64,000 bases of DNA. Source: Eledone cirrhosa (Eukaryota). Location of the stretch: positions 239,506,001 through 239,570,000 of the forward strand of contig OZ024741.1 in the NCBI GenBank assembly GCA_964016885.1, given 5' to 3'. A program made the position numbers and the translations under genes. This document shows positions 2,953 through 60,626 of the stretch, piece after piece. Position 1 is the first letter of the stretch. Every line of letters starts with the position of its first letter. The notes under the pieces were generated by a model that saw only the letters and a list, made by a program, of their open reading frames with translations, did no database searches and had not been told where the DNA came from.

Positions 2953-5900
2953 TTAACTAGCAACAACATCTGGTGTTGAAGGTAACTGTCTCTCTGGAGG
3001 TTTCACATATCTGTCTTGGTAATGGTCTCTCTCATTGTTGCTTGATACATCAGGTGGGGCACCATAGATTCCTGAAACAAGTACATCAACTCAACTTACT
3101 ACATAGTCGACATAGACAAACATTAGGTAATTACTGACATTAGTTATCAATCTTTTGTTCAGAACATTCAATTGACTAAGATATAACATAACAATCATTA
3201 ATGAAAATGTGTTTTATTATACCTGAAGAATTGAAATATTATTTAAGTGATCCAATTATTAGAGGTTAACTGAGAATATAAATTAATTATATTAATGATA
3301 ATAGACCCAGAGTAATATATATACTCTGGTAAAGTAGAAACTATTAAACATTACATCTGTGTAGAAACATATATTCACTTATTATAAAATTTATAAAGAA
3401 AGATTGCTAGAAATAATCTTATATTGTTTCACAGTTGTTGAAATTAGAAATTATAAAAATTGAATCCAAACAAATAGATAAATAAAATTGTTTTACCTGA
3501 CATTGCTGGTATTTCTTCATACTGTCTACTTGACCTCTCACTCCAGCACTGTCCACTACTCTTACGACTGGTCAATGTATCAGTAGGATAGTTAGCAGAT
3601 GGTCTGTTGTCTCCATAAGATGTCACCTCTATAGGTTGACTGTATTTCTGCAGTAAAATATAGGTATAATATAGATAGGGTGTAAAGATATATGGTACCA
3701 TTATCTATAAAGAAAACAAAACAATTCTATAGATGCTTCTTATCTGACAACTTTCAATCCTACCATAGAAAATGTACCCAGTATACATAATTAAAAGGCA
3801 GATGTATTGCAGATAATTATCTTATAGATCACAATTAAAAAGAGAAGTGTTAATAGCATTTTTAGACCTTTCTTTATTGGTGACAATATCAATTTAAATT
3901 CTGAGTGACTTAGTATGTTTGTAATGAAATGTAGTCATAGCTGACAGAGAATTCAGCCTATTTATTTTAGAGAGTAATCTGAATCAAACAAAGATCATAT
4001 AAATAAATGTTAGACTTGCTAAAAACAAAGTTATTTAGACTGTGCAATGTATGAATAAATCTACGATTCTTCTGGTGAGGGTCATGTAAACGAGTCACTT
4101 GCCAACAAATATTTTACAATATGCAAACAGCAATAAATCTTTGATGATTTCATATTTCTAAAAGGAACAGATTACATTTTTCATCAGAACATCATAATAT
4201 CATGTTTTCAATCAGAGATATTCTATATAAAAACTAATGGGAAAATAAACAATACTCCTAAATTAACAGAGTAACTATATAAGAAATAATATCCCTACTT
4301 AATTAAATATTTATTAACAGATAGAAAGTATATAATACAGTTTACCTTTGTAGATTTTTGAAGAGATCTATTCATTGTTGATGTCTTCCAGTCTTCAGGA
4401 TAGTAATGGCTTCTAGACTGACTATATCTGTCTGATATCTCTCCTCGATTACCTGACATCACAGATACACCGTTGTTACTTTGATAGATCAACTGTCTCA
4501 TCTCATTACGACATTGGTATGCCTGTTTCTCTTCTGTTGTTCTAGCTGAGTTATTTCTTACATTGTTACATCTCACAATACACAATGTTATAGAAACCAC
4601 AATAGCTATAGATACTATCACAGCTGCTACTACAATGATAATCAACAATGTTGCATCTATTGTGTTATCAGTTGGTACATGGACAGCTGTGAACATTGGT
4701 GATGTCTTGTTACTAACAGTCAGTGTTAAAGAGACACTAGTTGTTGCTGACAGAACTGGAGTACCACTGTCTTTCACAACAAACTCCAGTTGATATGATC
4801 CGGCATCATTTTGGTAAACTGTGCGAGAGTAAGATAAGACACCAGTGAATGAGTCCAGTTTAAATAATTGTTTCTCATTACCTGAAAGGATTTCATATCT
4901 GAGAAAAGCATTCATGTGACTGTCTATATCAGAGGCTTTCAGAAGTGTGATGTCATTCTTACTTTGTGGATGATAGTGGACATCAAGAGTCAAAGGGTCA
5001 ACACTAGGAAATGTAAAATATGGAGCATTATCATTTTTATCCAATACTTCTACTTCAACATTTACTGTGTTATTTAGAGATGGTGTTCCATTGTCTTTGA
5101 CTAAAACCTCAAAGTCATAGAAATCTCTGTGTTCTCTGTCTAAAGACTGGTTTGTTGAAATAAAGCCAGAGTTGATAATCTGGAATGGTAGACGATATTG
5201 GTGTTTATTTCTCAGATAATAACTTAATTCACCTCCCTTACCAACATCTGGGTCTGTAGCATTGATAAAACCAATAGGGAAATTAGCTTTGTCATTCTCA
5301 TAGGTAAGGAACTTGAATGTATCTTTGGTAAAGTGTGGTTTTACATCATTCACATCTAACACTTGTATTGAGAGATCTTTATCAGTTTTCAGAGAAGGTA
5401 ATCCTTTATCTTGACAGGAGACAGTAAAGTGATAATGTTCCTGTGTCTCTCTGTCTACTGCTTTCTTTAGAACTATTTTATATTCTTTAGATCCCATTGA
5501 CTGTAGTTTGAATGTATCGTGTTTAATATCACAGCTGACTTCTCCATTGTGTCCAACATCATTGTCAGTGACCATCACATAAGCAATGAAACTACCAACT
5601 TTGATATCTTCCAGAATGGTAGCTGTGTTGTGATTCTCTGTAGAAATATAGTTGACATCAATATTTGGAGGATTGTTGTGTTGGTTGATAACATTTACCA
5701 TAACAGTTGCTATGGCACTGAGTGGTGGACTGCCGTTATCTCTGGCTTCTATGTATAATTTAAAAGACTCTTCCATATCAATATCTGAAGACTTAGCTAA
5801 ATATAATTTTCCAGTATTTTCAACTAAATTAAAGTATCTTTTCATTTTTTCTGCAGTTTTCCTTGCAAAATAAAAAGATATTTTACCATTCCTGCCAATA

Positions 5901-6697
5901 TCTAAATCATTGGCAGATAATGTCACTAGTGGAATATTCTTCGTATGTTTATGCTCTATAGAGACATTGTAGATACTTTGGGTAAACTGTGGTGTGTTAT
6001 CATTTTCATCTTCTACAGATATTTTAACATTTAAAATACTTTGTTTTGGTGGAGTTCCTGCATCTTTAGCAATTACCTCAATATTGTAACTGTCTTCCTT
6101 TTCTCTGTCTAATTTTTCTTTCAAAATAATTCTTAATGTTGATATTTCATCAGTTTGTTTAGAAACTGATAAAGAAAAATATGCATTATACTTTTTTAAC
6201 TCATATTTGATTAAGCTGTTCTGATATCCAATGTCTTTATCCACAGCATTGGGTATTGACAGTGTTGATCCTCTGCCATCTCTCTCTGAAAACTGAATAT
6301 TGACTTGTTCAGTTGGAAACTCAGGTTGGTGGTCATTGATGTCTTCTATTATGACTTTAATTTTTAATATCTTCATAAATGTCTTGGATTTGTGAACAGC
6401 AACTTTCACTATTTCAAAACATTCTTTCTCATAACTACACACAGACTCAGCATCCAATGTCTGAACAGTGTACAGTTTACCTGTTTTTGTCACATTGAAC
6501 AACTGTTCTCCTTTTTGTTGTAGTTGACTAAATGTAATTAAATCCTTATTCTTTAAGGAGCTATCTGATGTCTGTAAGTCAGTAGCAATGTCCCCTACAT
6601 AAGTATAGGCATTACTCTCTTCTTTAACATGGTATGTGATATGTTCACTTAGATAACAGTGGAAGAACATCAGTAAAATACACAGAAATAACAACAT
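2953..6697 (-). CDS. Pcdh: Protocadherin gene B, 6 cadherin repeats + TM + cytoplasmic tail, ~873 aa
   Basis: Exons 6697-4346 (AAG|gtaaac, phase 0), 3647-3497 (KYSQ...PAMS, phase 1), 3071-2953 (GIYGAPPD...PDVVAS*). Cadherin motifs DINDHQP, LDRE, DENDN, DVNDVKP, DKNDNAP; hydrophobic TM LLIIIVVAAVIVSIAIVVSITLCIV; GT-AG introns keep frame. Confidence 0.93.
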
Positions 6698-7214
6698 CTC
6701 TGCTCTTGGTGTTAATACAGTGTCCTGGGAAAGATGACTATGAATATTTATTCTGAAACAGAAACAGTTTCAACATTAATACGGTATGCTATAATAAGTC
6801 TTTTCTTCCCAATTTTCTTTCCCTTCTTTTTTTCAAGAAAATAACAGATTATATACATTGTTTTTTATTTGTTTTACAAGTTTCTTGATATGAAATTGCG
6901 TGTTGAAATAGATATTGTATTTTGGGAGGTTCATACTTCCAATCATAACACATGCACTGGTTGTGTTTGACTTCAGTTTTTTTTATTTAGTAACTAATCT
7001 AGTAATCAGATAGTCCATATTAAAATATAGGCTTTGTAGGGAGTTTCGAGTTACCTCTCTTGACCACGAATTAATTTCAAATATTATAACAGTTATTTAA
7101 TATGTCATATTTGCAAATATAATTTCCATAAAAATGAAATAATTTTATAACATGAAACTATAGATATCAATGAACATATACACAGCAATAAAAATGTATA
7201 TATACATTGTGAGA

Positions 7215-7254
<40 letters not shown>

Positions 7255-8509: not shown

Positions 8510-11500
8510 TTAACTAGCAACAACATCTGGTGTTGAAGGTAACTGTCTCTCTGGAGGTTTCACATATCTGTCTTGGTAATGGTCTCTCTCATTGTTGCTT
8601 GATACATCAGGTGGGACACCATAGATTCCTGAAACAAGTACGTCAACTCAACTTACCATATAGTTCATAAAAATGCCATATATTTACAGACGGAAATTAG
8701 TAATCAATCTCTTGTCTACTAGGTTCACGAGGTTAAGATACGAAATTAAAGAAGTATAGGTCAGTTCCGTTAATAATAGACCCAGAGTGTGACATATATA
8801 CTCTGGTAAAGTAGAAACTATTAAATATAACATCTGTGTAGAAACATATATTCACTTATAAAATTTATAAAGAAAGATTGATAGAAACAATCTTAGATTC
8901 ACAGTTGTTGAAATTAGAAATTATGAAAATTGAATTCTAATAAATAGATAAATAGAATTGTTTTACCTGACATTGCTGGTATTTCTTCATACTGTCTACT
9001 TGACCTTTCACTCCAACACTGGCCACTACTCTTACGACTGGTCAATGTATCAGTGGGATAGTTAGCAGATGGTCTGTTGTCTCCATAAGATGTCACCTCT
9101 ATAGGTTGACTGTATTTCTGCAGTAAAATATAGGTACAATATAGATAGAGTGTAAAGATATATGGTACCATCATCTATAAAAAAAAAACATCAATTCTAT
9201 AGATGCTTCTTATCTGACAACTTTCAATCCTACCATGGGAAATGTACCCAGTATACATAAGTAAAAGGCAGATGTATTGCAGATAATTATCTTATAGATC
9301 ACAATTAAAAAGAGAAGTCTTAATAGCATTTTTAGACCTTTCATTACTGGTGACAATATCAATTTACATTGTGTGTGACTTAGTATGATTGTAATGAAAT
9401 GTTGTAGTCATCGCTGACAGATTTGTCTTAGAGAGGAATCTGACTCATACAAAGATCTTATAAATCAATGTTAACTTAGACTTGCTAAAAAGAAGTTATT
9501 TAGACAACAATGTATGAATAAATCCAGGATTCTCCTGGTGATGCCTATGTGAGTCACTTGCCAACAAATGATTTATGCAAACAGCACTACTTCTTTGATA
9601 ATTTCATATTTCAAAAAGTAACAGATTACATTTTTCATCAGAACATCTTGTTTTTAATCAGAAATATTCTATATGAAAACTGATGGGAAATTAAACAGTA
9701 CTCTTATATTAAAAGAGTAACTATATAATAAATAATATCCTACTTGATCAAATATTATTTACGAACAGATAAAAAATATATAATATAGTTTACCTTTGTG
9801 GATTTTTGAAGAGATCTGTTCATTGTTGATGTCTTCCAGTCTTCAGGATAGTAATGGCTTCTAGACTGACTATATCTGTCTGATATATCTCCTCGATTAC
9901 CTGACATCACAGATACACCGTTGTTACCTTGATAGATCAACTGTCTCATTTCATTACGACATTGGTATGCCTGTTTCTCTTCTGTTGTTCTAGCTGAGTT
10001 ATTTCTTACATTGTTACATCTCACAATACACAATGTTATAGAAACCACAATAGCTATAGATACTATCACAGCTGCTACTACAATGATAATCAACAATGTT
10101 GCATCTATTGTGTTATCAGTTGATACATGGACAGCTGTGAACATTGGTGATGTCTTGTTACTAACAGTCAGTGTTAAAGAGACACTAGTTGTTGCTGACA
10201 GAACTGGAGTACCACTGTCTTTCACAACAAACTCCAGTTGATATGATCCAGCATCATTTTGGTAAACTGTGCGAGAGTAAGATAAGACACCGGTGAATGA
10301 GTCCAGTTTAAATAATTGTCTCTCATTACCTGAAAGGATTTCATACCTGAGAAAAGCATTCATGTGACTGTCTATATCAGAGGCTTTCAGAAGTGTGATG
10401 TCATTCTTACTTTGTGGATGATAGTGGACATCAAGAGTGAAAGGGTCAACACTAGGAAATGTAAAATATGGAACATTATCATTTTTATCTAATACTTCCA
10501 CTTCAACAGTCACTGTATTATTTAGAGATGGTGTTCCATTGTCTTTGACTAAAACCTCAAAGTCATAGAAATCTCTGTACTCTCTATCTAAAGACTGGTT
10601 TGTTGAAATAAAGCCAGAGTTGATAATCTGGAATGGTAGACGATATTGGTGTTTATTTCTCAGATGATAACTTAATTCACCTCCCTTACCAACATCTGGG
10701 TCTGTAGCATTGATAAAACCAATAGGGAAATTAGCTTTGTCATTCTCATAGGTAAGGAACTTGAATGTATCTTTGGTAAAGTGTGGTTTTACATCATTCA
10801 CATCTAAGACTTGTATTGAGAGATCTTTATCAGTTTTCAGAGAAGGTAATCCTTTATCTTGACAGGAGACAGTAAAGTGATAATGTTCCTGTGTCTCTCT
10901 GTCTACTGCTTTCTTTAGAACTATTTTATATTCCTTAGATCCCATTGACTGTAGTTTGAATGTATCATGTTTGATATTACAGCTGACCTCTCCATTTTGT
11001 CCAACATCATTGTCAGTGACCATCACATAAGCAATGAAACTACCAACTTTGATATCTTCTAGAATGGTAGCTGTGTTGTGATTCTCTGTAGAAATATAGT
11101 TGACATCAATATTTGGAGGATTGTTGTGTTGGTTGATAACATTTATCATAACAGTTGCTATAGAACTGAGTGGTGGACTGCCATTATCTCTGGCTTCTAT
11201 ATATAATTTAAAAGACTCTTCCATATCCATTTCTGAAGATTTAGCTAAATATAACTTTCCAGTATTTTCATCTAAATCAAAGTATCTTTTCATTTTCTCT
11301 GAAGTTGTCCTAGCAAAATAGAAAGATATTTTACTATTTCTACCAATATCTAAATCATTAGCAGATAATGTCACTACTGGAATATTCTTTTTATGTTTAT
11401 GTTCTATAGAGACATTGTAGACACTTTGAGAAAATTCTGGTTTATTATCATTTTCATCTTCTACAGATATTTTAACATTTAAAATACTTTGTTTTGGTGG

Positions 11501-12145
11501 AGTGCCACCATCTTTAGCAATGACCTCAATATTGTAGCTGTCTTTCTTTTCCCTGTCTAATTTCTTTTCTAAAATAATTTCTAATGTTGATATTCCACCA
11601 GCTTCCTTGGAAACACTTAATGAAAATTGTTCATTATTATCTTTTAGTTCATATTTAATTAATCTATTTTGATACCCAACATCTTTGTCAACAGCATTGG
11701 GTATGGCCTTCTTCATACCATCTCGATCTCCTTCCCCAAACATAAGAGTGATGTCTTTCTCAGGAAACTCAGGTTGGTGGTCATTGATGTCTTCTATTAT
11801 GACTTTAATTTTTAATATCTTCATAAATGTCTTGGATTTGTGAACAGCAACTTTAATTATTTCAAAACATTCTTTCTCATAACTACACACAGACTCAGCA
11901 TCCAATGTCTGAACAGTGTACAGTTTACCTGTTTTTGTCACATTGAACAATTGTTCTCCCTTTTGTTGTAGTTGACTAAATGTAATTAAATCCTTATTCT
12001 TTAAGAAGGAGCTATCTGATGTCTGTAAGTCAGTAGCAATGTCCCCTATATAGGTATAGGGATTACTCTCTTCTTTAACATGGTATATAATATGTTCACT
12101 TAGATAACAGTGGAAGAAAGTCAGTAAAATACACAGAAATAACAT
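8510..12145 (-). CDS. Pcdh: Protocadherin gene C, ~873 aa
   Basis: Exons 12145-9794, 9117-8967, 8628-8510; same motifs, phases and GT-AG sites as gene B. Confidence 0.93.
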
Positions 12146-14615: not shown

Positions 14616-14618
14616 ATG

Positions 14619-16226: not shown

Positions 16227-19200
16227 TTAACTAGCAACAACATCTGGTGTTGAAGGTAACTGTCTCTCTGGAGGTTTCACATATCTGTCTTGGTAATGGT
16301 CTCTCTCACTGTTGCTTGACACATCAGGTGGGACACCATAGACTCCTGAAACAAGTACATCAACTCAACTTACCACATAGTTCATATAAATGCTATACAG
16401 TTACTGACAGAAATTAGTAATCAACCTCTTGTCAACAAGGTTCACAGAGTTAACATATAAAATAACAATTATTAAAGAAGTTATATTTTCCCAACCCTAA
16501 TGTCCTTAGATATAATACTTTCAATGATCCAATGATTAGTGGTTGACGGAGAATATAGGTCAGTTTCATTAATGATAATAGACCCAGAGTATGATGTATA
16601 TAAGGTGATGAAGTAGAAACTATTAAACATTATATCTATGTAGAAACATATATTCATTTATTATAACATTTATAAAGATTGATAGAAATATCAGATTGTT
16701 TCATAATTGTGGAAATTAAAAATTATGAAAAGTAAATTAAAATAAATAGATAAAAGAATATATTGTTTTACCTGACATTGCTGGTATTTCTTCATACTGT
16801 CTACTTGACCTCTCACTCCAGCATTGTCCACTCTTACGACTGGTCAATGTATCAGTGGGATAGTTAGCAGCTGGTCTGTTGTCTCCATAAGATGTCACCT
16901 CTATAGGTTGACTGTATTTCTGCAGTACAATATAGTTAAAATATAGATAGGGTGTAAACATATCATTAAAGACAATATATCTAATATATACTAAATTTCC
17001 TATATTGATAGGTACATGAATATTGATAAAATATTAGACAATTGTATACAAAAGTATCAACTACATAGACCCTTCTACTTGATCATTTTCATTTATACCA
17101 TAGAAGATGTATACAGTACATTTTATTTTATGGCTTACTCTAAGGTATAAACATTTCCTTTCTAGTTCTTCCTTTCTTAGTGATAAGTTCATATTGTGTG
17201 TGAGTTTGTGATACAAGGTTGTAGTCATACCAGGCTGGAAATTTGAAAAGTAGCATTACAGAAGAACTGTTTACAGAACAATCTGAATCCCAAAAAGATA
17301 GCTAATATCTTATTGACATAGTATAAAAGAGACTGTCTAAAAACAAAGTGTCTGAATACACCATTGATATTCCTGATGGGCTTTTTAAAGGTTCATTAAA
17401 CAAAATATAATTTAAAACATGAAAAAACAGTAAATCTTGGATTATCTCAGATTTTAAAAACAAACAAAATTCATTTCTCATCTACAGATCAAAATGCTAT
17501 TTTTTCAACCAGAAATAGTCAATTACTAAAGAATACTCATAAATTGATAATTTTAACTGAGCAAGATATTTATTGAAATATTTCTGACTAAGAGATAGGA
17601 AATATATAATATAATTTACCTTTGTGGATTTTTGAAGAGATCTGTTCATTGTTGATGTCTTCCAGTCTTCAGGATAGTAATGGCTTCTAGACTGACTATA
17701 TCTGTCTGATATCTCTCCTCGATTACCTGACATCACAGATACACTGTTGTTACCTTGATAGATCAACTGTCTCATCTCATTACGACATTGGTATGCCTGT
17801 TTCTCTTCTGTTGTTCTAGCTGAGTTATTTCTTACATTGTTACATCTCACAATACACAATGTTATAGAAACCACAATAGCTATAGATACTATCACAGCTG
17901 CTACTACAATGATAATCAACAATGTTGCATCTATTGTGTTATCAGTTGGTACATGGACAGCTGTGAACATTGGTGATGTCTTGTTACTAACAGTCAGTGT
18001 CAAAGAGACACTAGTTGTTGCTGACAGAACTGGAGTACCACTGTCTTTCACAACAAACTCCAGTTGATATGATCCAGCATCATTTTGGTAAACTGTGCGA
18101 GAGTAAGATAAGACACCAGTGAATGAGTCCAGTTTAAATAATTGTCTCTCATTACCTGAAAGGATTTCATACCTGAGAAAAGCATTCATGTGACTGTCTA
18201 GATCAGAGGCTTTCAGAAGTGTGATGTCATTCTTACTTTGTGGATGATAGTGGACATCAAGAGTGAAAGGGTCAACACTAGGAAATGTAAAATATGGAGC
18301 ATTATCATTTTTATCTAATACTTCCACTTCAACATTCACTGTGTTATTTAGAGATGGTGTTCCATTGTCTTTGACTAAAACCTCAAAGTCATAGAAATCT
18401 CTGTGTTCTCTGTCTAAAGATTGGTTTGTTGAAATAAAACCAGAGTTGATAATCTGGAATGGTAGATGATATTGGTGTTTATTTCTCAGATAATAACTTA
18501 ATTCACCTCCCTTACCAACATCTGGGTCTGTAGCATTGATAAAACCAATAGGGAAATTAGCTTTGTCATTTTCATAGGTAAGGAACTTGAATGTATCTTT
18601 GGTAAAGTGTGGTTTTACATCATTCACATCTAAGACTTGTATTGAGAGATCTTTATCAGTTTTGAGAGAAGGTAATCCTTTATCTTGACAGGAGACAGTG
18701 AAGTGATAATGTTCCTGTGTCTCTCTGTCTACTGCTTTCTTTAGAACTATTTTATATTCCTTAGATCCCATTGACTGTAGTTTGAATGTATCATGTTTAA
18801 TATTACAGCTGACCTCTCCATTGTGTCCAACATCATTGTCAGTGACCATCACATAAGCAATGAAACTACCAACTTTGATATCTTCCAGAACGGTAGCTGT
18901 GTTGTGATTCTCTGTAGAAATATAGTTGACATCAATATTTGGAGGATTGTTGTGTTGGTTGATAACATTAACCATAACAGTTGCTATGGAACTGAGAGGT
19001 GGATTGCCATTATCTCTGGCTTCAATATATAATTTAAAAGACTCTTCCATATCAATTTCTGAAGATTTAGCTAAATATAACTTTCCAGTATTTTTATCTA
19101 AATCAAAGAATCTTTTCATTTTCTCTGAAGTTGTCCTCGCAAAATAGAAAGATATTTTACCATTTCTACCAATATCTAAATCATTAGCAGATAATGTCAC

Positions 19201-19971
19201 TACTGGAATATTCTTTTTATGCTTGTGCTTTATAGAGACATTGTAGATACTTTGGGAGAATTTTGGTATATTATCATTTTCATCTTCTACAGATATTTTA
19301 ACATTTAAAATACTTTGTTTTGGTGGAGTTCCACCATCTTTAGCAATGACCTCAATATTGTAACTATCTTTCTTTTCCCTGTCTAATTTCATTTCTAAAA
19401 TAATTCTTAATGTTGATATTCCACCAGCTTCTTTTGAAACACTTAATGAAAATTGTCTTTCATCATCTTTCAGTTCATATTTAATTAATCTGTTTTGATA
19501 TCCCACATCTTTATCAATGGCACTGGGAATAGCCTTCTTCAAACCTCTACCATCTCCTTCCCCAAACACTAGAGTGATTTCTTTCCCTGGAAACTCAGGT
19601 TGGTGGTCATTGATGTCTTCTATTATGACTTTAATTTTTAATATCTTCATAAATGTCTTGGATTTGTGAACAGCAACTTTCACTATTTCAAAACATTCTT
19701 TCTCATAACTACACACAGACTCAGCATCCAATGTCTGAACAGTGTACAGTTTACCTGTTTTTGTCACATTGAACAATTGTTCTCCCTTTTGTTGTAGTTG
19801 ACTAAATGTAATTAAATCCTTATTCTTTAAGAAGGAGCTATCTGATGTCTTTAAGTCAATAGCAATGTCCCCTACATAAGTATAGGGATTACTCTCTTCT
19901 TTAACATGGTATGTGATATGTTCACTTAGATAACAGTGGAAGAAAGTCAGTAAAATACACAGAAACAACAT
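16227..19971 (-). CDS. Pcdh: Protocadherin gene D, ~872 aa
   Basis: Exons 19971-17620, 16919-16772 (one Ser shorter), 16345-16227; intact frame. Confidence 0.93.
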
Positions 19972-26600: not shown

Positions 26601-28311
26601 GAGTGAAAGGGTCAACACTAGGAAATGTAAAATATGGAGCATTATCATTTTTATCTAATACTTCCACTTCAACATTCACTGTGTTATTTAGAGATGGTGT
26701 TCCATTGTCTTTGACTAAAACCTCAAAGTCATAGAAATCTCTGTGTTCTCTGTCTAAAGATTGGTTTGTTGAAATAAAGCCAGAGTTGATAATCTGGAAT
26801 GGTAGACGATATTGGTGTTTATTTCTCAGATGATAACTTAATTCACCTCCCTTACCAACATCTGGGTCTGTAGCATTGATAAAACCAATAGGGAAATTAG
26901 CTTTGTCATTCTCATAGGTAAGGAACTTGAATGTATCTTTGGTAAAGTGTGGTTTTACATCATTCACATCTAACACTTGTATTGAGAGATCTTTATCAGT
27001 TTTGAGAGGAGGTAATCCTTTATCTTGACAGGAGACAGTAAAGTGATAATGTTCCTGTGTCTCTCTGTCTACTGCTTTCTTTAGAACTATTTTATATTCT
27101 TTAGATCCCATTGACTGTAGTTTGAATGTATCATGTTTGATATTACAGCTGACTTCTCCATTGTGTCCAACATCATTGTCAGTGACCATCACATAAGCAA
27201 TGAAACTACCAACTTTGATATCTTCCAGAATGGTAGCTGTGTTGTGATTTGGTGTAGAAATAAAGTTGACATCTATATTTGGAGGATTGTTGTGTTGGTT
27301 GATAACATTTACCATAACAGTTGCTATGGAACTTAGTGGTGGACTGCCATTATCTCTGGCTTCTATATATAATTTAAAAGACTCTTCCATATCAATTTCT
27401 GAAGATTTAGCTAAATATAACTTTCCAGTATTTTCAACTATATTAAAGTGCTTTTTCATTTTCTCTGCAGTTTTTCTAGCAAAATAGAAAGATATTTTAC
27501 CATTCCTACCAATATCTAAATCATTGGCAGATAATGTCACTACTGGAATATTCTTTTTATGTTTATGTTCTATGGAGACATTATAGATACTTTTGGAAAA
27601 TTGTGGTGGATTATCATTTTCATCTTCTACAGATATTTTAACATTTAAAATACTTTGTTTTGGTGGAGTTCCTCCATCTTTAGCAATGACTTCAATATTG
27701 TAACTATCTTCCTTTTCTCGGTCTAATTTCTTCTTCAAAATAATTCCTATTGTTGATATTTCATCTGTTTGTTTAGAAACTGATAAAGAAAAGTATGCAT
27801 TATCATTTTTTAATTCATATTTAATTAAGCTGTTCTCATATCCTACATCTTTGTCAATGGCGCTGGGAATGGGTCTCTTCTTACCATCTCGATCTCCTTC
27901 ACCAAACATTAGATTGATGTCTTTCTCAGGAAACTCAGGTTGGTGGTCATTGATGTCTTCTATTATGACTTTAATTTTTAATATCTTCATAAATGTCTTG
28001 GATTTGTGAACAGCAACTTTAATTATTTCAAAACATTCTTTCTCATAACTACACACAGACTCAGCATCTAATGTCTGAACAGTGTACAGTTTACCTGTTT
28101 TTGTCACATTGAACAATTGTTCTCCCTTTTGTTGTAGTTGACTGAATGTAATTAAATCCTTATTCTTTAAGAAGGAGCTATCTGATGTCTGTAAGTCAGT
28201 AGCAATGTCCCCTACATAAGTATAGGGATTACTCTCTTCTTTAACATGATATGTGATATGTTCACTTAGATAACAGTGGAAGAAAGTCAGTAAAATACAC
28301 AAAAATAACAT
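23659..28311 (-). CDS. Pcdh: Protocadherin gene E, ~872 aa
   Basis: Exons 28311-25960, 25200-25053, 23777-23659; intact frame; last intron enlarged by a retroelement. Confidence 0.93.
23840..24945 (-). mobile_element. Decayed non-LTR retrotransposon fragment with zinc knuckle and restriction-like endonuclease remnant
   Basis: Minus strand reads CPLYKGKLTLVHIFSSC (CCHC-like), then SLRSDILLSSEASKQVVLIELSI (PD..E-type RLE). Absent from the same intron in most paralogs. Ends approximate. Confidence 0.7.
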
Positions 28312-33786: not shown

Positions 33787-33852
<66 letters not shown>

Positions 33853-36600: not shown

Positions 36601-36698
36601 TTGAATATTCAATCTGAAATAGAAATAGATTTAACATATTAATGAAATCTTGAATATTCAATCTGAAATAGAAATAGATTTAACATATTAATGAAATC
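36601..36698. repeat. 49-bp tandem duplication covering the splice acceptor of the gene F large exon
   Basis: ttgaatattcaatctgaaatagaaatagatttaacatattaatgaaatc occurs twice; single in gene D. Confidence 0.9.
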
Positions 36699-42800: not shown

Positions 42801-45379
42801 AAAACCTCCATGCATCCTGAGATTCGCCAGCACTGCACCTGATGTCCCCCCTCCATACACACGCACACGTATTTCATGACTCATACACTATTCAATACAC
42901 TGTTCATTATCAAGACATTTAAACATTATTCTATGTACTATACATGCACCTTTGATGAGCTATAGTGCACCTGAGCACTGTACACACTAATTTCATTATT
43001 ATTATTAAAATATATAATATAGTTTACCTTTGTGGATTTCTGAAGAGATCTGTTCATTGTTGATGTCTTCCAGTCTTCAGGATAGTAATGACTTCTAGAC
43101 TGACTATATCTGTCTGATATCTCTCCTCGATTACCTGACATCACAGATACACTGTTGTTACCTTGATAGATCAACTGTCTCATCTCATTACGACATTGGT
43201 ATGCCTGTTTCTCTTCTGTTGTTCTAGCTGAGTTATTTCTTACATTGTTACATCTCACAATACACAATGTTATAGAAACCACAATAGCTATAGATACTAT
43301 CACAGCTGCTACTACAATGATAATCAACAATGTTGCATCTATTGTGTTATCAGTTGATACATGGACAGCTGTGAACATTGGTGATGTCTTGTTACTAACA
43401 GTCAGTGTTAAAGAGACACTAGTTGTTGCTGACAGAACTGGAGTACCACTGTCTTTCACAACAAACTCCAGTTGATATGATCCGGCATCATTTTGGTAAA
43501 CTGTACGCGAGTAAGATAAGACACCAGTGAATGAGTCCAGTTTAAATAATTGTTTCTCATTACCTGAAAGGATTTCATACCTGAGAAAAGCATTCATGTG
43601 ACTGTCTAGATCAGAGGCTTTCAGAAGTGTGATGTCATTCTTACTTTGTGGATGATAGTGGACATCAAGAGTGAAAGGGTCAACACTAGGAAATGTAAAA
43701 TATGGAGCATTATCATTTTTATCTAATACTTCCACTTCAACATTTACTGTGTTATTTAGAGATGGTGTTCCATTGTCTTTGACTAAAACCTCAAAGTCAT
43801 AGAAATCTCTGTGTTCTCTGTCTAAAGATTGGTTTGTTGAAATAAAGCCAGAGTTGATAATCTGGAATGGTAGACGATATTGGTGTTTATTTCTCAGATA
43901 ATAACTTAATTCACCTCCCTTACCAACATCTGGGTCTGTAGCATTGATAAAACCAATAGGGAAATTAGCTTTGTCATTCTCATAGGTAAGGAACTTGAAT
44001 GTATCTTTGGTAAAGTGTGGTTTTACATCATTCACATCTAACACTTGTATTGAGAGATCTTTATCAGTTTTGAGAGGAGGTAATCCTTTATCTTGACAGG
44101 AGACAGTAAAGTGATAATGTTCCTGTGTCTCTCTGTCTACTGCTTTCTTTAGAACTATTTTATATTCCTTAGATCCCATTGACTGTAATTTGAATGTATC
44201 ATGTTTGATATTACAGCTGACCTCTCCATTATGTCCAACATCATTGTCAGTGACCATCACATAAGCAATGAAACTACCAACTTTGATATCTTCCAGAATG
44301 GTAGCTGTGTTGTGATTCTCTGTAGAAATATAGTTGACATCAATATTTGGAGGATTGTTGTGTTGGTTGATAACATTTACCATAACAGTTGCTATGGCAC
44401 TGAGAGGAGGGCTGCCTTCATCTCTAGCTTCAATATATAATTTAAAAGACTCTTCTATATCCATTTCTGAAAATTTAGCTAAATACAACTTTCCAGTATT
44501 TTCATCTAAATTGAAGTGTTTTGTCACCTTTTCAATAGTTTTCCTAGCAAAATAGAAAGATATTTTACCATTCCTGCCAGTATCTAAATCTTTTGCAGAT
44601 AATGTCACTACTGGAATATTCTTTTTATGGTCATGTTTTATAGAGACATTGTAGATACTTTTGGAAAATTGTGGTGGGTTATCATTTTCATCTTCTACAG
44701 ATATTTTAACATTTAAAATACTTTGTTTTGGTGGAGTTCCTCCATCTTTAGCAATGACTTCAATATTGTAGCTGTCTTTTTTTTCTCTGTCTAATTTATC
44801 TTTCAAAATAATTCCTATTGTTGATATTTCATCAGTTTGTTTAGAGACTGATAAGGAAAAATATTCATTATGCTTTTTTAATTCATATGTAATTAAGCTG
44901 TTCTCATATCCCACATCTTTGTCAACAGCATTAGGTATGGCTTTCTTCATACCTTTACCATCTCCTTCCCTAAAATTAAGTGTGATGTCTTTCTCAGGAA
45001 ACTCAGGTTGGTGGTCATTGATGTCTTCTATTATGACTTTAATTTTTAATATCTTCATAAATGTCTTGGATTTGTGAACAGCAACTTTAACTATTTCAAA
45101 ACATTCTTTCTCATAACTACACACAGACTCAGCATCCAATGTCTGAACAGTGTACAGTTTACCTGTTTTTGTCACATTGAACAATTGTTCTCCCTTTTGT
45201 TGTAGTTGACTAAATGTAATTAAATCCTTATTCTGTAAGAAGGAGCTATCTGATGTCTGTAAGTCAGTAGCAATGTCCCCTATATAAGTATAGGGATTAC
45301 TCTCTTCTTTAACATGGTATGTGATATCTTCACTTAGATAACAGTGAAACAAAGTCAGTAAAATACACAGAAATAACAT
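39857..45379 (-). CDS. Pcdh: Protocadherin gene G, ~871 aa (ends PDVVS*)
   Basis: Exons 45379-43028, 41384-41237, 39972-39857 (3 nt shorter); intact frame. Confidence 0.93.
40035..41140 (-). mobile_element. Second copy of the RLE-type retrotransposon fragment (co-duplicated with the gene)
   Basis: Nearly identical to 23840-24945 and at the same position in the last intron. Confidence 0.7.
41419..41976 (+). mobile_element. 5'-truncated RTE-clade LINE
   Basis: QERRLRWYGHVMRM...GNRGVERPKMTWDEVIKADL is typical of the RTE C-terminus; (GAT)n tail; flanking direct repeat gatagcat; absent from the same intron of genes D and E. Confidence 0.8.
42660..43006 (+). mobile_element. 3' fragment of a CR1/L2-like LINE
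   Basis: TRGHANKVRK...RKHFFTLRVAESWNKL...FK, a CR1-group C-terminal signature; (ATT)n tail. Confidence 0.75.
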
Positions 45380-49102: not shown

Positions 49103-52100
49103 TTAGTTACCTTCAACACCAGATGTTGTTGCTAGTTGTCTCTCTGGAGGTTTCACATATCTGTCTTGGTAATGGTCTCTCTCATTGTTGCTTGACACAT
49201 CAGGTGGGACACCATAGATTCCTGAAACAAGTACATCAACCCAACTTACTATATAGTTCACAAAGACAGTCAATAGTTATTTACTGACATCAGTTATCAA
49301 TCTTTTGTCCGCTAGATTCACTGGATTAAGATATATAATATCAATCATTAAAGAATTAATAGTACACCATACAATTACATCTTTACAATCTTAAACACAT
49401 CAATAAACCACTGACTAGTTGAATAAAGCGATATATTTAGTAATTTAAGACAAACATTAAATTATCAAAATATTAGTCATATATTAGTAGTAATATAGTG
49501 ACAAAATGAGTAAAAATAATTATGAACATCAGAACACAATGCTTTTTTTAGATAATACTTTGATATGTAACACTGAGAAAGACGATAAACACAGTAATAA
49601 AGATATTGTTTTACCTGACATTGCTGGTATTTCTTCATACTGTCTACTTGACCTTTCACTCCAGCACTGTCCACTACTCTTACGACTGGTCAATGTATCA
49701 GTGGGATAGTTAGAAGATGGTCTGTTGTCTCCATAAGATGTCACCTCTATAGGTTGACTGTATTTCTGATTTAAAATACAGTTACAAGATAGAGTATAGG
49801 GATATTTAGGACAATGTACCTAAAATATACTAAATTTTGAGATATTGATGAGCACATGTATACTTTTGAAATATTCAATTATTTTTTATAAAAGAATCAA
49901 CTATGTAGATCCTCTTTATTTGATCCTTTTTCACCATACCAAAGAACAAGTGTACCACCATGCATTTTGGTGGTAAAAACCCAGCGTCCACATACACCCT
50001 CCACAACACTAATATCAAGAAGTCTTCTTGTGAACGTGACCTGGGTATTACTGTCAGCAGCGATTTGCGTTGGATTAAGCACGTCTCTAGCATTGTCAAG
50101 AAGGCTGAGGGTGTCTTAGCATCACTCAACAAGACTTGTCAGCCGCTCTCCAGCTATCTATTTAAAGCTGTCATCATCATCATCTTTGTTTAACGTCCAT
50201 TTTCCATACTACCATGGGTTATAGCTATAGTGCGGCCACACTTAGAATTTGAATCACCAGTCTGGAACCCGTATCTTGCTCAGAACATTGATGGCCTGGA
50301 AACTGTTCAGAGATGTGCAACCAAGTGAATACCCTCCATCAGGCATCTACCTTACTCTGAACGCCTTGCTTCCCTGGGCATGGATACATTGAAGCTCCAA
50401 CGTCTGGCAACTGACTTGGTAAACACCCACAAAATTATTAACCATCTTGCCAACAACAACCCTGAGTACCTTTTTGACTTCCATGTGGACATGCCTACAA
50501 AGTCAGAAAATAGCACAGCTCCCATGACTTTCAGAAAGATTCTTTCACACTCAGAGTTGCTGAAGCATGGAACAAACTACCTGCATCAGTTGTTAGCTGT
50601 CGAGACACTGCATCCTTTAAAACCTCCATGCTTCCTGAGATTCACCAACACTACAGCTAATATCTCCTCCCCATACACACGCACACATGTATATTATGGC
50701 TCATACACTATTCACTTCCCTGACATTTGTATATTATTCTATGTACTATACATGCACCTTTGGTGAGTTGTAGTGCACCTGAGCACTACACAATAATTTC
50801 ATTATTATTATATAACATATTCCAAATAATTATTTCATAGCTTATTCTGAAAAATATATCTAAATATACCTTTTTTAGGTCTATCTTAATATTGTGGGTG
50901 AGTATGTAGGTTTTTAGTGCAAATTTGGAGGTATAACAAATTTAGCATGTTTGTCAACAGAAGTACATTTTCCAAAACAATCTGAAATTATCCAAAATAG
51001 ATGATACCAGTGTTAAAATCCTAGTGACAAAGTTGCTCTGGCGACAAATGTCAAGATTCTGGCTCCAGTGTATGACTGCACCCTTTTTTTACAATTCTGT
51101 TCACATTGTACTCGTTAAATATTAATTTACAAAAAAATAGGTATAACATGGATTATCTCATATTTTAAACAAACTGAAAATATCAGCACCTGATAATGTT
51201 TTTTTTTTTTTCCACCAGATATTCTATATTAAAATCGATCAGAAATTAAGCAGCAACCATAAATGGGTAATTCAAACAGTAATATAAAATATTAGGTTTT
51301 ATCATACAAAGTTAAACATTATTTATTAATAGAAAGAAAATATAAAAAATAGGTTACCTTTGTGGATTTCTGAAGAGATCTGTGCATTGTTGATGTCTTC
51401 CAGTCTTCAGGATAGTAATGGCTTCTAGACTGACTATATCTGTCTGATATCTCTCCTCGATTACCTGACATCACAGATACACTGTTGTTACCTTGATAGA
51501 TCAACTGTCTCATCTCATTACGACATTGGTATGCCTGTTTCTCTTCTGTTGTTCTAGCTGAGTTATTTCTCACATTGTTACATCTCACAATACACAATGT
51601 TATAGAAACCACAATAGCTATAGATACTATCACAGCTGCTACTACAATGATAATCAACAATGTTGCATCTATTGTGTTATCAGTTGGTACATGGACAGCT
51701 GTGAACATTGGTGATGTCTTGTTACTAACAGTCAGTGTTAAAGAGACACTAGTTGCTGCTGATAGAACTGGAGTACCACTGTCTTTCACAACAAACTCCA
51801 GTTGATATGATCCGGCATCATTTTGGTAAACTGTGCGAGAATAAGATAAGACACCAGTGAATGAGTCCAGTTTAAATAATTGTTTCTCATTACCTGAAAG
51901 GATTTCATACCTGAGAAAAGCATTCATGTGACTGTCTATATCAGAGGCTTTCAGAAGTGTGATGTCATTCTTACTTTGTGGATGATAGTGGACATCAAGA
52001 GTGAAAGGGTCAACACTAGGAAATGTAAAATATGGAGCATTATCATTTTTATCTAATACTTCCACTTCAACATTCACTGTGTTATTTAGAGATGGTGTTC

Positions 52101-53709
52101 CATTATCTTTGACTAAAACCTCAAAGTCATAGAAATCTCTGTGTTCTCTGTCTAAAGACTGGTTTGTTGAAATAAAGCCAGAGTTGATAATCTGGAATGG
52201 TAGATGATATTGGTGTTTATTTCTCAGATAATAACTTAATTCACCTCCCTTACCAACATCTGGGTCTGTAGCATTGATAAAACCAATAGGGAAATTAGCT
52301 TTGTCATTCTCATAGGTAAGGAACTTGAATGTATCTTTGGTAAAGTGTGGTTTTACATCATTCACATCTAACACTTGTATTGAGAGATCTTTATCAGTTT
52401 TAAGAGAAGGTAATCCTTTATCTTGACAGGAGACAGTAAAGTGATAATGTTCCTGTGTCTCTCTGTCTACTGCTTTCTTTAGAACTATTTTATATTCTTT
52501 AGATCCCATTGACTGTAGTTTGAATGTATCATGTTTGATATTACAGCTGACCTCTCCATTGTGTCCAACATCATTGTCAGTAACCATCACATAAGCAATG
52601 AAACTACCAACTTTGACATCTTCCAGAATGGTAGCTGTGTTGTGATTCTGTGTAGAAATATAGTTAACATCAATATTTGGAGGATTGTTATGTTGGTTAA
52701 TAACATTTACCATAACAGTTGCAATGGAACTAAGAGGAGGGCTGCCTCCATCTCTGGCTTTTATGTATAATTTAAAAGACTCTTCCATATCAATTTCTGA
52801 TGATTTAGCTAAATACAACTTTCCAGTATTTTCATCTAAATCAAAGAATCTTTTCGTTTTCTCTGAAGTTGTCATTGCAAAATAGAAAGATATTTTACCA
52901 TTGCTGCCAACATCTAAATCTTTGGCAGATAATGTCACTACTGGAATATTCTTTTTATGTTTATGTTTTATAGAGACATTGTAGATACTTTGAGAGAATT
53001 TTGGTATATTATCATTTTCATCTTCTACAGATATTTTAACATTTAAAATACTTTGTTTTGGTGGAGTTCCTCCATCTTTAGCAAGGACATCAATGTTGTA
53101 ACTGTCTTTTTTTTCCCTGTCTAATTTCTTTTCTAGAATAATTCTTAATGTTGATATTCCACCAGCTTCCTTGGAAACACTTAACGAAAAGTGTTCCTCG
53201 TCATGTTTCAGTTCATACTTAATTAATCTGTTCTGATACCCAACATCTTTATCCACAGCATTTTCTATTGATCTCTTGGTGCCTTTTCCATCAGTTTCAG
53301 AAAACTGAATATTCACTTGTTCAGTTGGAAACTTAGGTTGGTGGTCATTGATGTCTTCTATTATTACTTTAATTTTTAATATCTTCATAAATGTCTTTGA
53401 TTTGTGAACAGCAACTTTCACTATTTCAAAACATTCTTTCTCATAACTACACACAGACTCAGCATCCAATGTCTGAACAGTGTACAGTTTACCTGTTTTT
53501 GTCACATTAAACAATTGTTCTCCCTTTTGTTGTAATTGACTAAATGTAATTAAATCCTTATTCTTTAAGAAGGAGCTATCTGATGTCTGTAAGTCAGTGG
53601 CAATGTCCCCTACATAAGTATAGGGATTACTCTCTTCTTTAACATGGTATGTGATATGTTCACTTAGATAACAGTGGAAGAAAGTCAGTAAAATACACAG
53701 AAATAACAT
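49103..53709 (-). CDS. Pcdh: Protocadherin gene H, ~873 aa, variant C-terminus QLATTSGVEGN*
   Basis: Exons 53709-51358, 49765-49615, 49221-49103; terminal exon carries a 33-bp in-frame inversion. Confidence 0.92.
49948..50813 (+). mobile_element. Longer 5'-truncated CR1/L2-like LINE
   Basis: KCTTMHFGGKNP...ERDLGITVSSDLRWIKHV, VRPHLEF, VWNPYL and the same 3' end and ATT tail as the other copies. Empty site in gene F near 32560. Confidence 0.8.
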
Positions 53710-55760: not shown

Positions 55761-56170
55761 ATTCATTGTGTAAAATCCTTTGTTATAACTGTGAGTTGGT
55801 CCCAATGTTCTGTTAATGGTTGTCTGTGTCACTGCTGCTATGGTGTGACAATGGCTTCATGTTGATGGAATAGTGTTGGTAGTGAGTCAGTGGGAACCAG
55901 CAGTTCCTCTCAGTCTTCAATGTGTATGTGTGATGTTTACTGAGTGTGAGTGTGTGTGAGAGAGAGAGGTGGGGGAGGGTGATGCTTACTTCAGCCTCAC
56001 TCAGACTAGATGTGTTTCCCCTCACAGAAAAGAGGGAGAGAGAGAGAAGACACAATATCAGCTCCACTAACAGTCAGCCAAATGTCTATATAATAATATG
56101 TCTGGTGTAGAGAGACTGACATAGAAATACTTAGAAGAGAGAGGTTATATTAACAAAATATGGCTGATGT
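55761..56170 (-). promoter_or_regulatory. Conserved promoter + putative leader exon of gene H (exon ~55941-55761)
   Basis: Same block; donor at 55761/55760; large exon begins at 53765. Confidence 0.6.
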
Positions 56171-56765: not shown

Positions 56766-59700
56766 TTAACTAGCAACAACATCTGGTGTTGAAGGTAACT
56801 GTCTCTCTGGAGGTTTCACATATCTGTCTTGGTAATGGTCTCTCTCATTGTTGCTTGACACATCAGGTGGGACACCATAGATACCTGAAAGAAATAATTC
56901 AATTCAACTTACCACATAGTTCACATAGACAATAGATATCTTCTGACATTAATAATCCATCTCTTGTCCAGTCTGATATAAAATGACAATTATTAAAAAG
57001 GTTCTTTTTGACCATCCCTAAAATTCTTCAAAATTATAAACATAAATTATTATAATGATAATAATAAACATGGAAAATGAAATGTTTTTACCTGACATTG
57101 CCGGTATTTCTTCATACTGTCTACTTGACCTTTCACTCCAGCACTGTCCACTACTCTTACGACTAGTCAGTGTATCAGTGGGATAGTTAGACGATGGTCT
57201 GTTGTCTCCATAAGATGTCACCTCTATAGGCTGACTGTATTTCTGCTGTAAAGTTAGTTAAAACAGATTGTAAAGGTATTTATAATATTGGATATGAAAT
57301 GTATGCAATATCTAGGTAAAAATCAGTACATGTTAACTGTTGAAATATGGTACAACCATCTACAAAAATATCAATTGTCTTTTACAAATATTCTAATGAT
57401 TCCACTACATTATTGTCAAATTTCTGCAGGACAATTCACAAGGGGATTTCAAACTTCCAACTTAAATCCTTCCTTCCAATCCTACCACACAAAATGGATT
57501 CATTATACATTAGTCAAAGTCTTATGTATTGCAAATAATTATTTCATAGCACACTGTAAGTGTGGTTGGTGTTAGCAAGGGCTTCCAGCCATAGAAAACC
57601 AGCCAGAAACACCCCTATATGAGCGAAACACTGTCACCCGACAACTTGCCTCAAAATAGGATCCACCTAACCCATGCTAGTGTGGAAGATATACGCTAAT
57701 CGATGATGATGATGATGATGACTTTTAATGAATAAAGGTTCACATGGTCTTTTGACCTCACCGTTAATGGTGATAATATAAATTTATATTGTGCATGAGT
57801 TTGCAGTGCAAGGTAGGAATGACAAGAGGTACAGAATTAAGGAGATGTGTCTTCTGGATAACAGGTTAGAAGAATCTGAATAGTACAAAGTAGGGAGGTT
57901 CCACAATTTTAGACAACAACCTATTGAGAAATAAATTGCATTCTGCAATGTAATATGTAATATATATATGAATCTTCTAGTGGTATCCTTCTTAAACATT
58001 CTTTTACCAACAAATAGCTTACAATTAGCAAACAGCAGTAAATCTTGGATTAACACACATTTAAAACATAACCCGTCTAAACCCATGCTAGCATGGAAGA
58101 TAGACGTTAAACGAATATATACAATATTTATTTCTATATCATAACAATTATTTCTAACAAGACATATTCTTTTAAAAACTCTGGAGACATAAAATTTGCC
58201 TAAATTGGTAATTTAAATAGTAACTAAGAGAATAAACATTATTTAATAGCAGATAAAAGATATTGAATAGACTTTACCTTTGTAGATTTTTGAAGAGATC
58301 TGTTTATTGTTGATGTCTTCCAGTCTTCAGGATAGTAATGGCTTCTAGACTGACTATATCTGTCTGATATCTCTCCTTGATTACTTGACATCAGAGATAC
58401 ACTGTTGTTACCTTGATAGATCAACTGACTCATCTCATTACGACATTGGTATGCCTGTTTCTCTTCTGTTGTTCTAGCTGAGTTATTTCTTACATTGTTA
58501 CATCTCACAATACACAATGTTATAGAAACCACAATAGCTATAGATACTATCACAGCTGCTACTACAATGATAATCAACAATGTTGCATCTATTGTGTTAT
58601 CAGTTGATACATGGACAGCTGTGAACATTGGTGATGTCTTGTTACTAACAGTCAATGTTAAAGAAACACTAGTTGTTGCTGACAGAACTGGAGTACCACT
58701 GTCTTTCACAACAAACTCCAGTTGATATGATCCGGCATCATTTTGGTAAACTGTGCGAGAGTAAGATAAGACACCGGTGAATGAGTCCAGTTTAAATAAT
58801 TGTTTCTCATTACCTGAAAGGATTTCATACCTGAGAAATGCATTCATGTGACTGTCTATATCAGAGGCTTTCAGAAGTGTGATGTCATTCTTACTTTGTG
58901 GATGATAGTGGACATCAAGAGTGAAAGGGTCAACACTAGGAAATGTAAAATATGGAGCATTATCATTTTTATCTAATACTTCCACTTCAACATTCACTGT
59001 GTTATTTAGAGATGGTGTTCCATTGTCTTTGACAAAAACCTCAAAGTCATAGAAATCTCTGTGTTCTCTGTCTAAAGACTGGTTTGTTGAAATAAAACCA
59101 GAGTTGATAATCTGGAATGGTAGACGATATTGGTGTTTATTTCTCAGATAATAACTTAATTCACCTCCCTTACCAACATCTGGGTCTGTAGCATTGATAA
59201 AACCAATAGGGAAATTAGCTTTGTCATTCTCATAGGTAAGGAACTTGAATGTATCTTTGGTAAAGTGTGGTTTTACATCATTCACATCTAACACTTGTAT
59301 TGAGAGATCTTTATCAGTTTTCAGAGAAGGTAATCCTTTATCTTGACAGGAGACAGTGAAGTGATAATGTTCCTGTGTCTCTCTGTCTACTGCTTTCTTT
59401 AGAACTATTTTATATTCCTTAGATCCCATTGACTGTAATTTGAATGTATCATGTTTGATATTACAGCTGACCTCTCCATTATGTCCAACATCATTGTCAG
59501 TGACCATCACATAAGCAATGAAACTACCAACTTTGATATCTTCCAGAATGGTAGCTGTGTTGTGATTCTCTGTAGAAATATAGTTGACATCAATATTTGG
59601 AGGATTGTTGTGTTGGTTGATAACATTTACCATAACAGTTGCTATAGAACTGAGTGGTGGACTGCCATCATCTCTGGCTTTTATGTATAATTTAAAATCT

Positions 59701-60626
59701 TCCATATCAATTTCTGAAGATTTAGCTAAATATAACTTTCCAGTATTTTTATCTAAATCAAAGAATCTTTTCATTTTCTCTGAAGTTGTCATTGCAAAAT
59801 AGAAAGATATTTTACCATTCCTGCCAATATCTAGATCATTGGCAGATAATGTCACTACTGGAATATTCTTGTTGTGCTTATGTTTTATAGAGACATTGTA
59901 AATACTTTGAGAAAATTCTGGTTTATTATCATTTTCATCTTCAACAGATATTTTAACATTTAAAATACTTTGTTTTGGTAGAGTGCCACCATCTTTAGCA
60001 ATAATTTCAATATTGTAACTATCTTTCTTTTCCCTGTCTAATTTATTTTCTAAAATAATTTCTAATGTTGATATTCCACCTGCTTCCTTTGAAACACTTA
60101 ATGAAAATTGTCCTTCATCATCTTTCAGTTCATATTTAATTAATCTGTTTTGGTATCCCACATCTTTGTCAACAGCATTGGGTATGGCCTTCTTCATACC
60201 TCTACCATCTCCTTCCCTAAACACTAGTGTAATGTCTTTCTCAGGAAACTCAGGTTGGTGGTCATTGATGTCTTCTATTATGACTTTAATTTTCAATATC
60301 TTCATAAATGTCTTGGATTTGTGAACAGCAACTTTAATTATTTCAAAACATTCTTTCTCATAACTACACACAGACTCAGCATCCAATGTCTGAACAGTGT
60401 ACAGTTTACCTGTTTTTGTCACATTGAACAATTGTTCTCCCTTTTGTTGTAGTTGACTAAATGTAATTAAATCCTTATTCTTTAAGGAGCTATCTGATGT
60501 CTGTAAGTCAGTAGCAATGTCCCCTACATAAGTATAGGGATTACTCTCTTCTTTAACATGGTATGTGATATATTCACTTAGATAACAGTGGAAGAAAGTC
60601 AGTAAAATACACAGAAATAACAACAT
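56766..60626 (-). CDS. Pcdh: Protocadherin gene I, ~872 aa
   Basis: Exons 60626-58278, 57242-57092, 56884-56766; intact frame. Confidence 0.93.

Follow-up and report, generated by a model that had tools for sequence, protein, structure and literature searches.

Regional gene conversion in the clustered protocadherins of vertebrates was reportedly described by Noonan et al. in 2004 and by Wu in 2005. In reports on fugu (PMC1852091), Xenopus (PMC4978886) and PCDHB11 (PMC4828864), conversion in these clusters acts domain by domain, and extracellular cadherin repeats two and three (EC2 and EC3) are described as spared. Octopod clusters contain sub-arrays of multi-exon, whole-gene duplicates that lie head to tail on the same strand, and the parts consulted of two papers suggest gene conversion for octopus arrays (Albertin et al., 2022, PMC9068888; Styfhals et al., 2019, PMC6339937). 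Here we analyze a stretch of 64,000 nucleotides from Eledone cirrhosa (contig OZ024741.1, positions 239,506,001 to 239,570,000; hereafter the window), which holds eight intact octopod protocadherin genes, B to I, all on the minus strand and all with open frames in six-frame translation. We interpret the window as one section of a tandem array whose full-length octopod protocadherin genes evolve in concert, with old sequence patches re-dealt on a homogenized scaffold. We assign this reading a probability of roughly 0.65.

The encoded proteins have protocadherin architecture: a signal peptide, six cadherin repeats with a Cadherin_2-type EC1, one transmembrane helix and a cytoplasmic tail. Pfam recognizes PF08266 (Cadherin_2) and five PF00028 (Cadherin) stretches. 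The closest proteins, 82-87% identical, are from Octopus sinensis, O. bimaculoides, O. vulgaris and Argonauta hians, and all 35 top matches are Octopus and Argonauta proteins (71-87% identical).

Homogenized scaffold and divergent EC2 and EC3

Amino-acid identity among the eight genes is 0.97, 0.79, 0.86, 0.98, 0.98 and 0.98 in EC1 through EC6, respectively. Synonymous divergence (dS) is 0.48 in EC2 and 0.26 in EC3, against 0.055-0.08 in EC1, EC4-6 and the tail. Because silent sites rise together with replacement sites, EC2 and EC3 are older and not merely less constrained. Low dS is confined to particular regions, and these homogenized regions sort by lineage, the pattern of concerted evolution. 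A test of third-position GC content for converted regions gave 0.28-0.32 against 0.20-0.24. The same domain profile is found in a neighboring subfamily of 13 proteins. Ectopic recombination keeps EC1, EC4-6, the tail and a promoter-like element near-identical within a lineage. EC2 and EC3 are not overwritten as a whole and retain a limited set of diverged motif alleles.

A sequence-only reading of this DNA had described EC2-EC3 as a shuffled patchwork of four blocks, and our alignment bears out its assignments. Block 1 is TEQVNIQFSE in B and H, EKDI.L.F in C, E, G and I, and GKEITLVF in D and F. Block 2 is PSAI in D, E and F, ENAV in H, and PNAV in B, C, G and I. Block 3 is NSLI..KQTDEIST in B, E and G, and NRLI..EAGGIST in C, D, F, H and I. 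Block 4 (PQF in B, E and G; KPEF in C, F and I; IPKF in D and H) is weak alone, with 2-3 sites per group. All four combinations of block 1 (T or E) and block 3 (Q or E) are present: T+Q in B, T+E in H, E+Q in E and G, and E+E in C and I. The EC2-EC3 regions, on the minus strand, lie at 5672..6328 in B (T block 1 with Q block 3), 11120..11776 in C (E with the G-type block 3), 18946..19602 in D, 27286..27942 in E (E+Q), 35535..36191 in F, 44354..45010 in G (E+Q), 52684..53340 in H (T block 1 on a C/D/F/I-type remainder) and 59604..60257 in I.

Conflicting histories within EC2 and EC3

A single duplication tree does not fit these regions, as the sequence-only reading had argued. Among 116 informative sites in EC2-3, 14 back a grouping of B, E and G and nine back the incompatible grouping of B with H. 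Five of the 14 are synonymous, including a TCA/AGT serine switch, and both sets are clustered along the gene (p=5e-5 and 8e-5). The pairwise homoplasy index (PHI) test, in our own implementation, gave p=2e-4 for EC2-3; on the 31 synonymous sites of EC2-3 it gave p=4e-4 (w=100) and 0.006 (w=30). Restricting the data to a single site per codon kept the signal (20 of 20 draws, p<=0.001), and so did leaving out any gene (8 of 8) or the pairs BH, EH or BE. From EC4 to the tail, PHI was not significant (p 0.37-0.86), and the synonymous sites of the whole exon, or of EC3 taken separately, gave no significant signal either (p 0.07-0.74). In approximately unbiased (AU) tests, segments 125-148, 149-159 and 160-199 reject one another's trees in all six pairings (p<=0.033), and the first two also reject the whole-gene tree. 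Simulations without recombination, on the best single tree with site-rate variation under nucleotide models that lack amino-acid selection, gave as much conflict as observed in 1 of 300 and 0 of 300 runs; the PHI p value fell below 0.01 in 3 of 100 and 0 of 100. Painting with a copying model, whose penalties are arbitrary, beat all 200 shuffles in seven of the eight genes (not I). We also counted 11 recombination intervals, but recurrent mutation affects this figure and we do not rely on it.

Recombination between paralogs is the best explanation for this conflict, and the gene conversion proposed by the sequence-only reading probably accounts for part of it. One candidate is block 2 of E (27856..27870, minus strand; cluster p=0.003, uncorrected), where four consecutive informative sites are common to D, E and F only. 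The tract spans less than about 20 bases between discordant sites and, with unlike sequence to either side, fits a short conversion. Two of the four sites are synonymous; short tracts with synonymous co-transfer, together with cross-species motifs, are also the pattern of the major histocompatibility complex (MHC).

Other exchanges also contribute. The 5' flanks group by similarity as D-F, E-G-I and C-H; first introns group as B-C, D-E and F-H, and second introns as B-C-D, E-G and F-H. Because the 5' and 3' groupings differ, gene halves have been exchanged and unequal crossing-over is indicated. The upstream flanks of D and F, and of E and G, are related, so the blocks common to each pair are partly the result of plain duplication. 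We infer the share of conversion relative to unequal crossing-over only loosely. Short conversion tracts and unequal crossovers re-deal alleles among copies, lineage by lineage, with exchange probably seeded in the conserved strands between patches.

Age of the blocks, their possible function and alternative explanations

For comparison across species, 61 distinct EC2-3 units were cut from homologs and from members of the cluster, and the window genes brought the total to 69. Twelve of the 69 (divergent subfamily members, truncated or gapped models) were dropped, leaving 57: 21 from O. sinensis, 18 from A. hians, five each from O. vulgaris and O. bimaculoides, and eight from the window. Unit types were assigned by our own patterns on protein sequence alone; the source of some units is a gene model that is fused or unplaced. 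EC4-6, complete in 51 units, splits the window, Octopus and Argonauta fully, with a within-lineage maximum distance of 0.031 and a between-lineage minimum of 0.041. An Fst-like measure by lineage is 0.87 for EC4-6, 0.09 for block 1 and 0.02 for block 3. All four classes of block 1 with block 3 occur among the O. sinensis units and among the A. hians units, and a protein-level PHI-like incompatibility test gives p=3e-4 in each of the two species.

The blocks did not arise newly in this array: the alleles are old and common to Octopus and Argonauta, an age that the sequence-only reading had no means to see. Because the same alleles are found in both lineages and in the window, they predate the Argonauta-Octopus split, for which the fossil minimum is about 29 Ma (PMC12682272, as given in the part consulted). 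Patterns across the units indicate that the alleles are recombined separately in each lineage. Blocks 1-2 of H (53254..53325, minus strand) carry the cross-species 'SETD..ENA' allele by block comparison; H block 1 differs by 5% from an O. sinensis unit, but by 25% from B, the closest paralog in the window. Block 3 of H (53131..53235, minus strand) carries the EAGG allele, found only in window genes among the 57 units; for this block and the H EC3 loop, the closest relatives are paralogs in the window (distances 0.00 and 0.07). EAGG and the Argonauta allele QTDLIS are lineage-specific, and each occurs on both backgrounds. A unit type with EADGLSSL and an RKTP loop is intact in three species, and the O. 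vulgaris units P0125 and P0121 have combinations that are not among the incompletely sampled O. sinensis and O. bimaculoides units. Taken together, we consider it very probable that ectopic recombination homogenizes the scaffold, that EC2 and EC3 retain a motif pool older than the Argonauta-Octopus split, and that recombination re-deals it.

The image of a combinatorial barcode holds in part. All four combinations exist, but the blocks are not freely combinatorial: block 3 is strongly tied to EC3 loop type (mutual information 0.46, p=2e-4, a generous value as the units are not independent). Block 1 is weakly tied to block 3 (0.13, p=0.024) and to the EC3 loop (0.10, p=0.085). The association of block 3 with the EC3 loop may reflect selection for matching surfaces or mere gene ancestry. 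All eight window genes carry one class of EC3 loop (RKTxEK-like), and three or four classes are found in units of O. sinensis, O. bimaculoides, O. vulgaris and A. hians. A partial sweep of EC3 in the window lineage may explain this, or the other classes may lie outside the window. Block 1 alleles of the FSETD.KGTK and FREGDGRG types also occur in P0050, P0057, P0038 and P0077, which belong to a subfamily with no more than about 58-60% identity to the genes of the window; these alleles may be older still, or may have crossed subfamily borders.

The position of the blocks on a predicted structure suggests a function. A model of H EC1-4 (predicted local distance difference test score 85) finds its best fold matches in protocadherin EC1-4 structures (template-modeling score up to 0.77, ~30% identity). 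Block 1 forms the first EC2 strand and the next loop, block 2 the second strand; block 3 extends to the EC2 beta4-beta5 loop, and block 4 begins EC3. Regions of dimer specificity in vertebrates are the EC2 beta4-beta5 loop, EC3 beta1b and the EC3 Phe-X10-Phe loop (PMC5001838, portions consulted); residue pairs 111:294, 125:253 and 128:257 set specificity, E111 of mouse gammaB7 among them (PMC5106212, portions consulted). E111 aligns without gaps to column 136, the most variable EC2-3 column in the 57 units. Columns 283 and 324 lie close to 257 and 294, the published partners, and rank at the 95th and 96th percentiles of variability, by an approximate EC3 mapping. A homodimer prediction of H EC1-4 scored 0.01 with the alignment not used; it was set aside and is not evidence.

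By homology, the patches would correspond to the first and second strands of EC2, the EC2 beta4-beta5 loop and the Phe-X10-Phe-type loop of EC3, which in vertebrate antiparallel dimers form the EC2:EC3 contact. A new combination would probably alter partner choice, and selection for distinct isoforms would keep the alleles alive. That new block combinations create new specificities is a reasonable inference. We put the chance that the patches set binding, and that selection keeps their alleles, just short of even. A bolder version is correspondingly more tentative: octopods would hold EC2/EC3 patch alleles at least 29 million years old, re-dealt by micro-recombination, so that germline shuffling of sub-domain modules on a uniform scaffold would make new homophilic identities, and the EC2 beta4-beta5 and EC3 loops would be coupled by dimer fit.

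Several results weigh against our interpretation. The AU segments were picked after the blocks had been seen. Segment 160-199 rejects neither the whole-gene tree nor the EC3 tree (p=0.10), and because it fits both, most of EC2-EC3 has one history, with B, E and G set against C, D, F, H and I. The proposed GENECONV and PHI checks differ in outcome: PHI is significant, but the weaker GENECONV-like test of EC2-3 leaves only 1 of 28 pairs after correction (D-F, sister duplicates). Private changes are found in most segments of every gene, which indicates that the exchanges are mostly not recent. GC content at fourfold sites shows no conversion-linked rise or pattern, and the mosaic test in the neighboring subfamily of 13 proteins was not significant (p=0.07). 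There is no overall amino-acid excess: the ratio of nonsynonymous to synonymous divergence (dN/dS) is 0.27, the value for EC2, and 0.26, as domain-wide estimates. Mapped columns 150 and 151 reach only the 46th and 65th variability percentiles, and the mapping of EC3 positions is approximate. Finally, public contigs in the best-matching runs are without H's own EC2 letters, e.g. at 53185-53205, though the contig tool states that rare variants are dropped.

The alternative that survives best is that the mosaic is a neutral by-product of real recombination, in which EC2-3 escape homogenization through early divergence that blocks heteroduplex formation, or through relaxed constraint, with no change in binding and no selection on the reshuffled patches. 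The low dN/dS in EC2 is consistent with this, the patches that vary are strands and loops at the model's surface, which tolerate change, and no binding study or binding data for octopus protocadherins turned up in the literature searched. However, the same few alleles persist in the window species, Octopus and Argonauta, whose neighboring domains were overwritten separately, and variability peaks at the position homologous to a vertebrate specificity residue. We consider the neutral account unlikely.

Far less probable is an origin of all four types in the octopod ancestor, followed by inheritance as orthologs with no later reshuffling. All four types are already in O. sinensis and A. hians, some recur intact across species as the EADGLSSL type does in three, and private changes lie on both sides of the junctions. 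This scenario is at odds with H, in which a cross-species block 1 is combined with a block 3 and an EC3 loop nearest to those of window paralogs, with QTDLIS on both backgrounds in Argonauta, and, within the limits of incomplete sampling, with the O. vulgaris combinations.

It is more improbable again that hypervariable sites changed repeatedly or convergently along a single tree. None of the nine sites that unite B and H is in a column synonymous across all eight genes, and B and H differ by 22% in segment 125-148. Convergence would not account for the PHI signal at synonymous sites alone, for conflict in only 1 of 600 simulations with site-rate variation (nucleotide models, no amino-acid selection), or for a 20-residue block within 5% across lineages.

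Four public runs were compared with window positions 52500-54300. Among the 32 of 760 pieces listed, no contig spans the H junction; some H-private letters are present at close to the depth of a single copy (52699, 52968) and others are missing. In H, segment 125-148 has 6 private bases, segment 149-159 has 3 and segment 160-199 has 6; within EC2-3, any two genes are identical over at most 93 consecutive bases. We find it hardly credible that collapsed paralogs were assembled into chimeras: such arrays are hard to assemble and public contigs are without H-private letters at several places, but the eight frames are open, private bases on both sides of the junctions and the 93-base maximum show that no gene is pieced together from copies of others, and independent assemblies of other species give the same pattern.

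Array organization and relation to known systems

A promoter-like element with a 5' non-coding exon precedes all eight genes that have upstream DNA in the window. There is one copy per unit, 90-96% identical, with donors at 2182, 7732, 14214, 22587, 30976, 39014, 48386 and 55761. A contig from run X4 (record 24) covers the coding part of H and lacks the upstream intron, joining the AG acceptor at 53765 to the per-unit sequence; for H, the exon and element lie at 55761..56140 (minus strand). Given this junction, and GTAAG after the per-unit donor sequence in every copy, each gene has a 5' non-coding exon. The element (e.g. 2182-2560) is conserved at 90-96% against about 55-95% in the introns, lies mostly 0.7-1.1 kb (once 2.0 kb) beyond the stop of the preceding gene, and contains a short upstream reading frame of 15 codons. 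It is a candidate shared regulatory element akin to the conserved promoter motif of vertebrates.

The first coding exons of B to I encode 783-784 amino acids up to the GT donor, and each ends after KSTK. Coding spans, all on the minus strand, are 2953..6697 for B (exons 6697-4346, ~3650-3495 and 3069-2953, the first encoding the signal peptide, EC1-6, the transmembrane helix and part of the tail), 8510..12145 for C, 16227..19971 for D, 23659..28311 for E, 31727..36557 for F, 39857..45379 for G, 49103..53709 for H and 56766..60626 for I. The large exons of C to I are at 12145-9794, 19971-17620, 28311-25960, 36557-34209, 45379-43028, 53709-51358 and 60626-58278, each with two 3' exons of its own. 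A ninth gene, A, has only the first 92 bases of its first coding exon in the window (1..92, minus strand; tblastn match 59-3), and the remainder lies beyond. We considered and rejected a vertebrate-type shared constant exon: every unit has its own copies of both tail exons.

Several smaller features were observed. An exact 33-base micro-inversion in the last exon of H (49105..49137, minus strand) leaves the frame open and switches the C-terminal ten residues from LPSTPDVVAS to LATTSGVEGN. In F, a perfect 49-base tandem duplication at 36601-36699 doubles the splice acceptor before the start codon. At the acceptors of the first tail exon (e.g. 3650, 57245) the exon begins with CAG, and gene I has a tandem CAGCAG. 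Because Octopus database proteins carry both KSTKKYSQ and KSTKQKYSQ, one-residue alternative splicing is suggested at this acceptor. Genes D, E and G have one serine fewer in the first tail exon. Octopus database models P0124, P0135, P0146, P0148 and P0154 (1,786-4,439 residues) consist of several array units fused, probably as annotation artefacts; alternatively, they could reflect read-through splicing. Contig depth over window positions 52500-54300 in runs X1 and X2 is about 140-233 in EC1 and about 5-11 in the unique flank. This difference suggests, as a rough guide only, that the subfamily has more copies than the nine seen in the window.

Relative to the octopod sub-arrays, the layout is the same: tandem, complete genes on one strand, with two own 3' tail exons in all eight. 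Whole-gene duplication, own 3' exons and the lack of a shared constant exon are common to the window and the arrays described in the consulted parts of PMC9068888 and PMC6339937. Those parts treat homogenization only in general terms and contain neither a domain-level picture nor a sub-domain mosaic or cross-species block alleles. Nothing on such a mosaic, or on block alleles common to several species, in cephalopods turned up in the literature searched, which covered few subscription papers or supplements; this claim is limited by the chance that an analysis at the level of domains stands in the supplements of the 2015 and 2022 octopus papers or in Wang and Ragsdale (2017). A burst at 8-14 Ma has been dated for such arrays (PMC9795677, portions consulted). 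Dates from whole-gene trees or pairwise distances, such as this one, may mark homogenization and not duplication.

Vertebrate clusters and the window array have the same fold, and in both, going by the vertebrate reports as consulted, the 3' ectodomains and tail are homogenized and dS and diversity are highest in EC2/EC3. The window profile resembles that given for mouse alpha protocadherins (0.96, 0.69, 0.59, 0.85, 0.98 and 0.84 in EC1-6) in the source as consulted. The window array differs in being an independent expansion with no variable/constant splicing. Vertebrate EC2/EC3 are called spared by conversion in the text consulted, whereas in the window EC2-3 are spared from homogenization yet internally mosaic. 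In addition, EC4 is almost invariant in the window, so any specificity in these proteins must come from EC2:EC3. A vertebrate-like control from fused models, in which 2 of 149 proteins had at least four units (six units, p=0.43; four units, p=0.053), is too small to be informative: when the window genes are themselves reduced to sets of four or five, p<0.05 is obtained in no more than 19 of 40 and 32 of 55 scorable sets.

In MHC class I micro-conversion and in clusters of plant NLR and other recognition genes, short tracts within a recognition surface are moved among paralogs and motifs are older than species. Here, it is the paralogs of a presumed homophilic adhesion protein that vary, and both partner surfaces must stay compatible. 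The eight natural proteins, 97-98% identical outside EC2-3 and with defined block differences, form a panel for tests of isoform-specific binding, which is called unknown for cephalopod protocadherins in the consulted part of PMC6339937. The array is a variant of known concerted evolution, in which old surface motifs are re-dealt by conversion and unequal crossing-over, with a putative function proposed from homology. If this is correct, octopods and vertebrates have converged on large arrays and on the same rule, a standard scaffold with a variable EC2-EC3, to which octopods add reshuffling within the EC2-EC3 surface.

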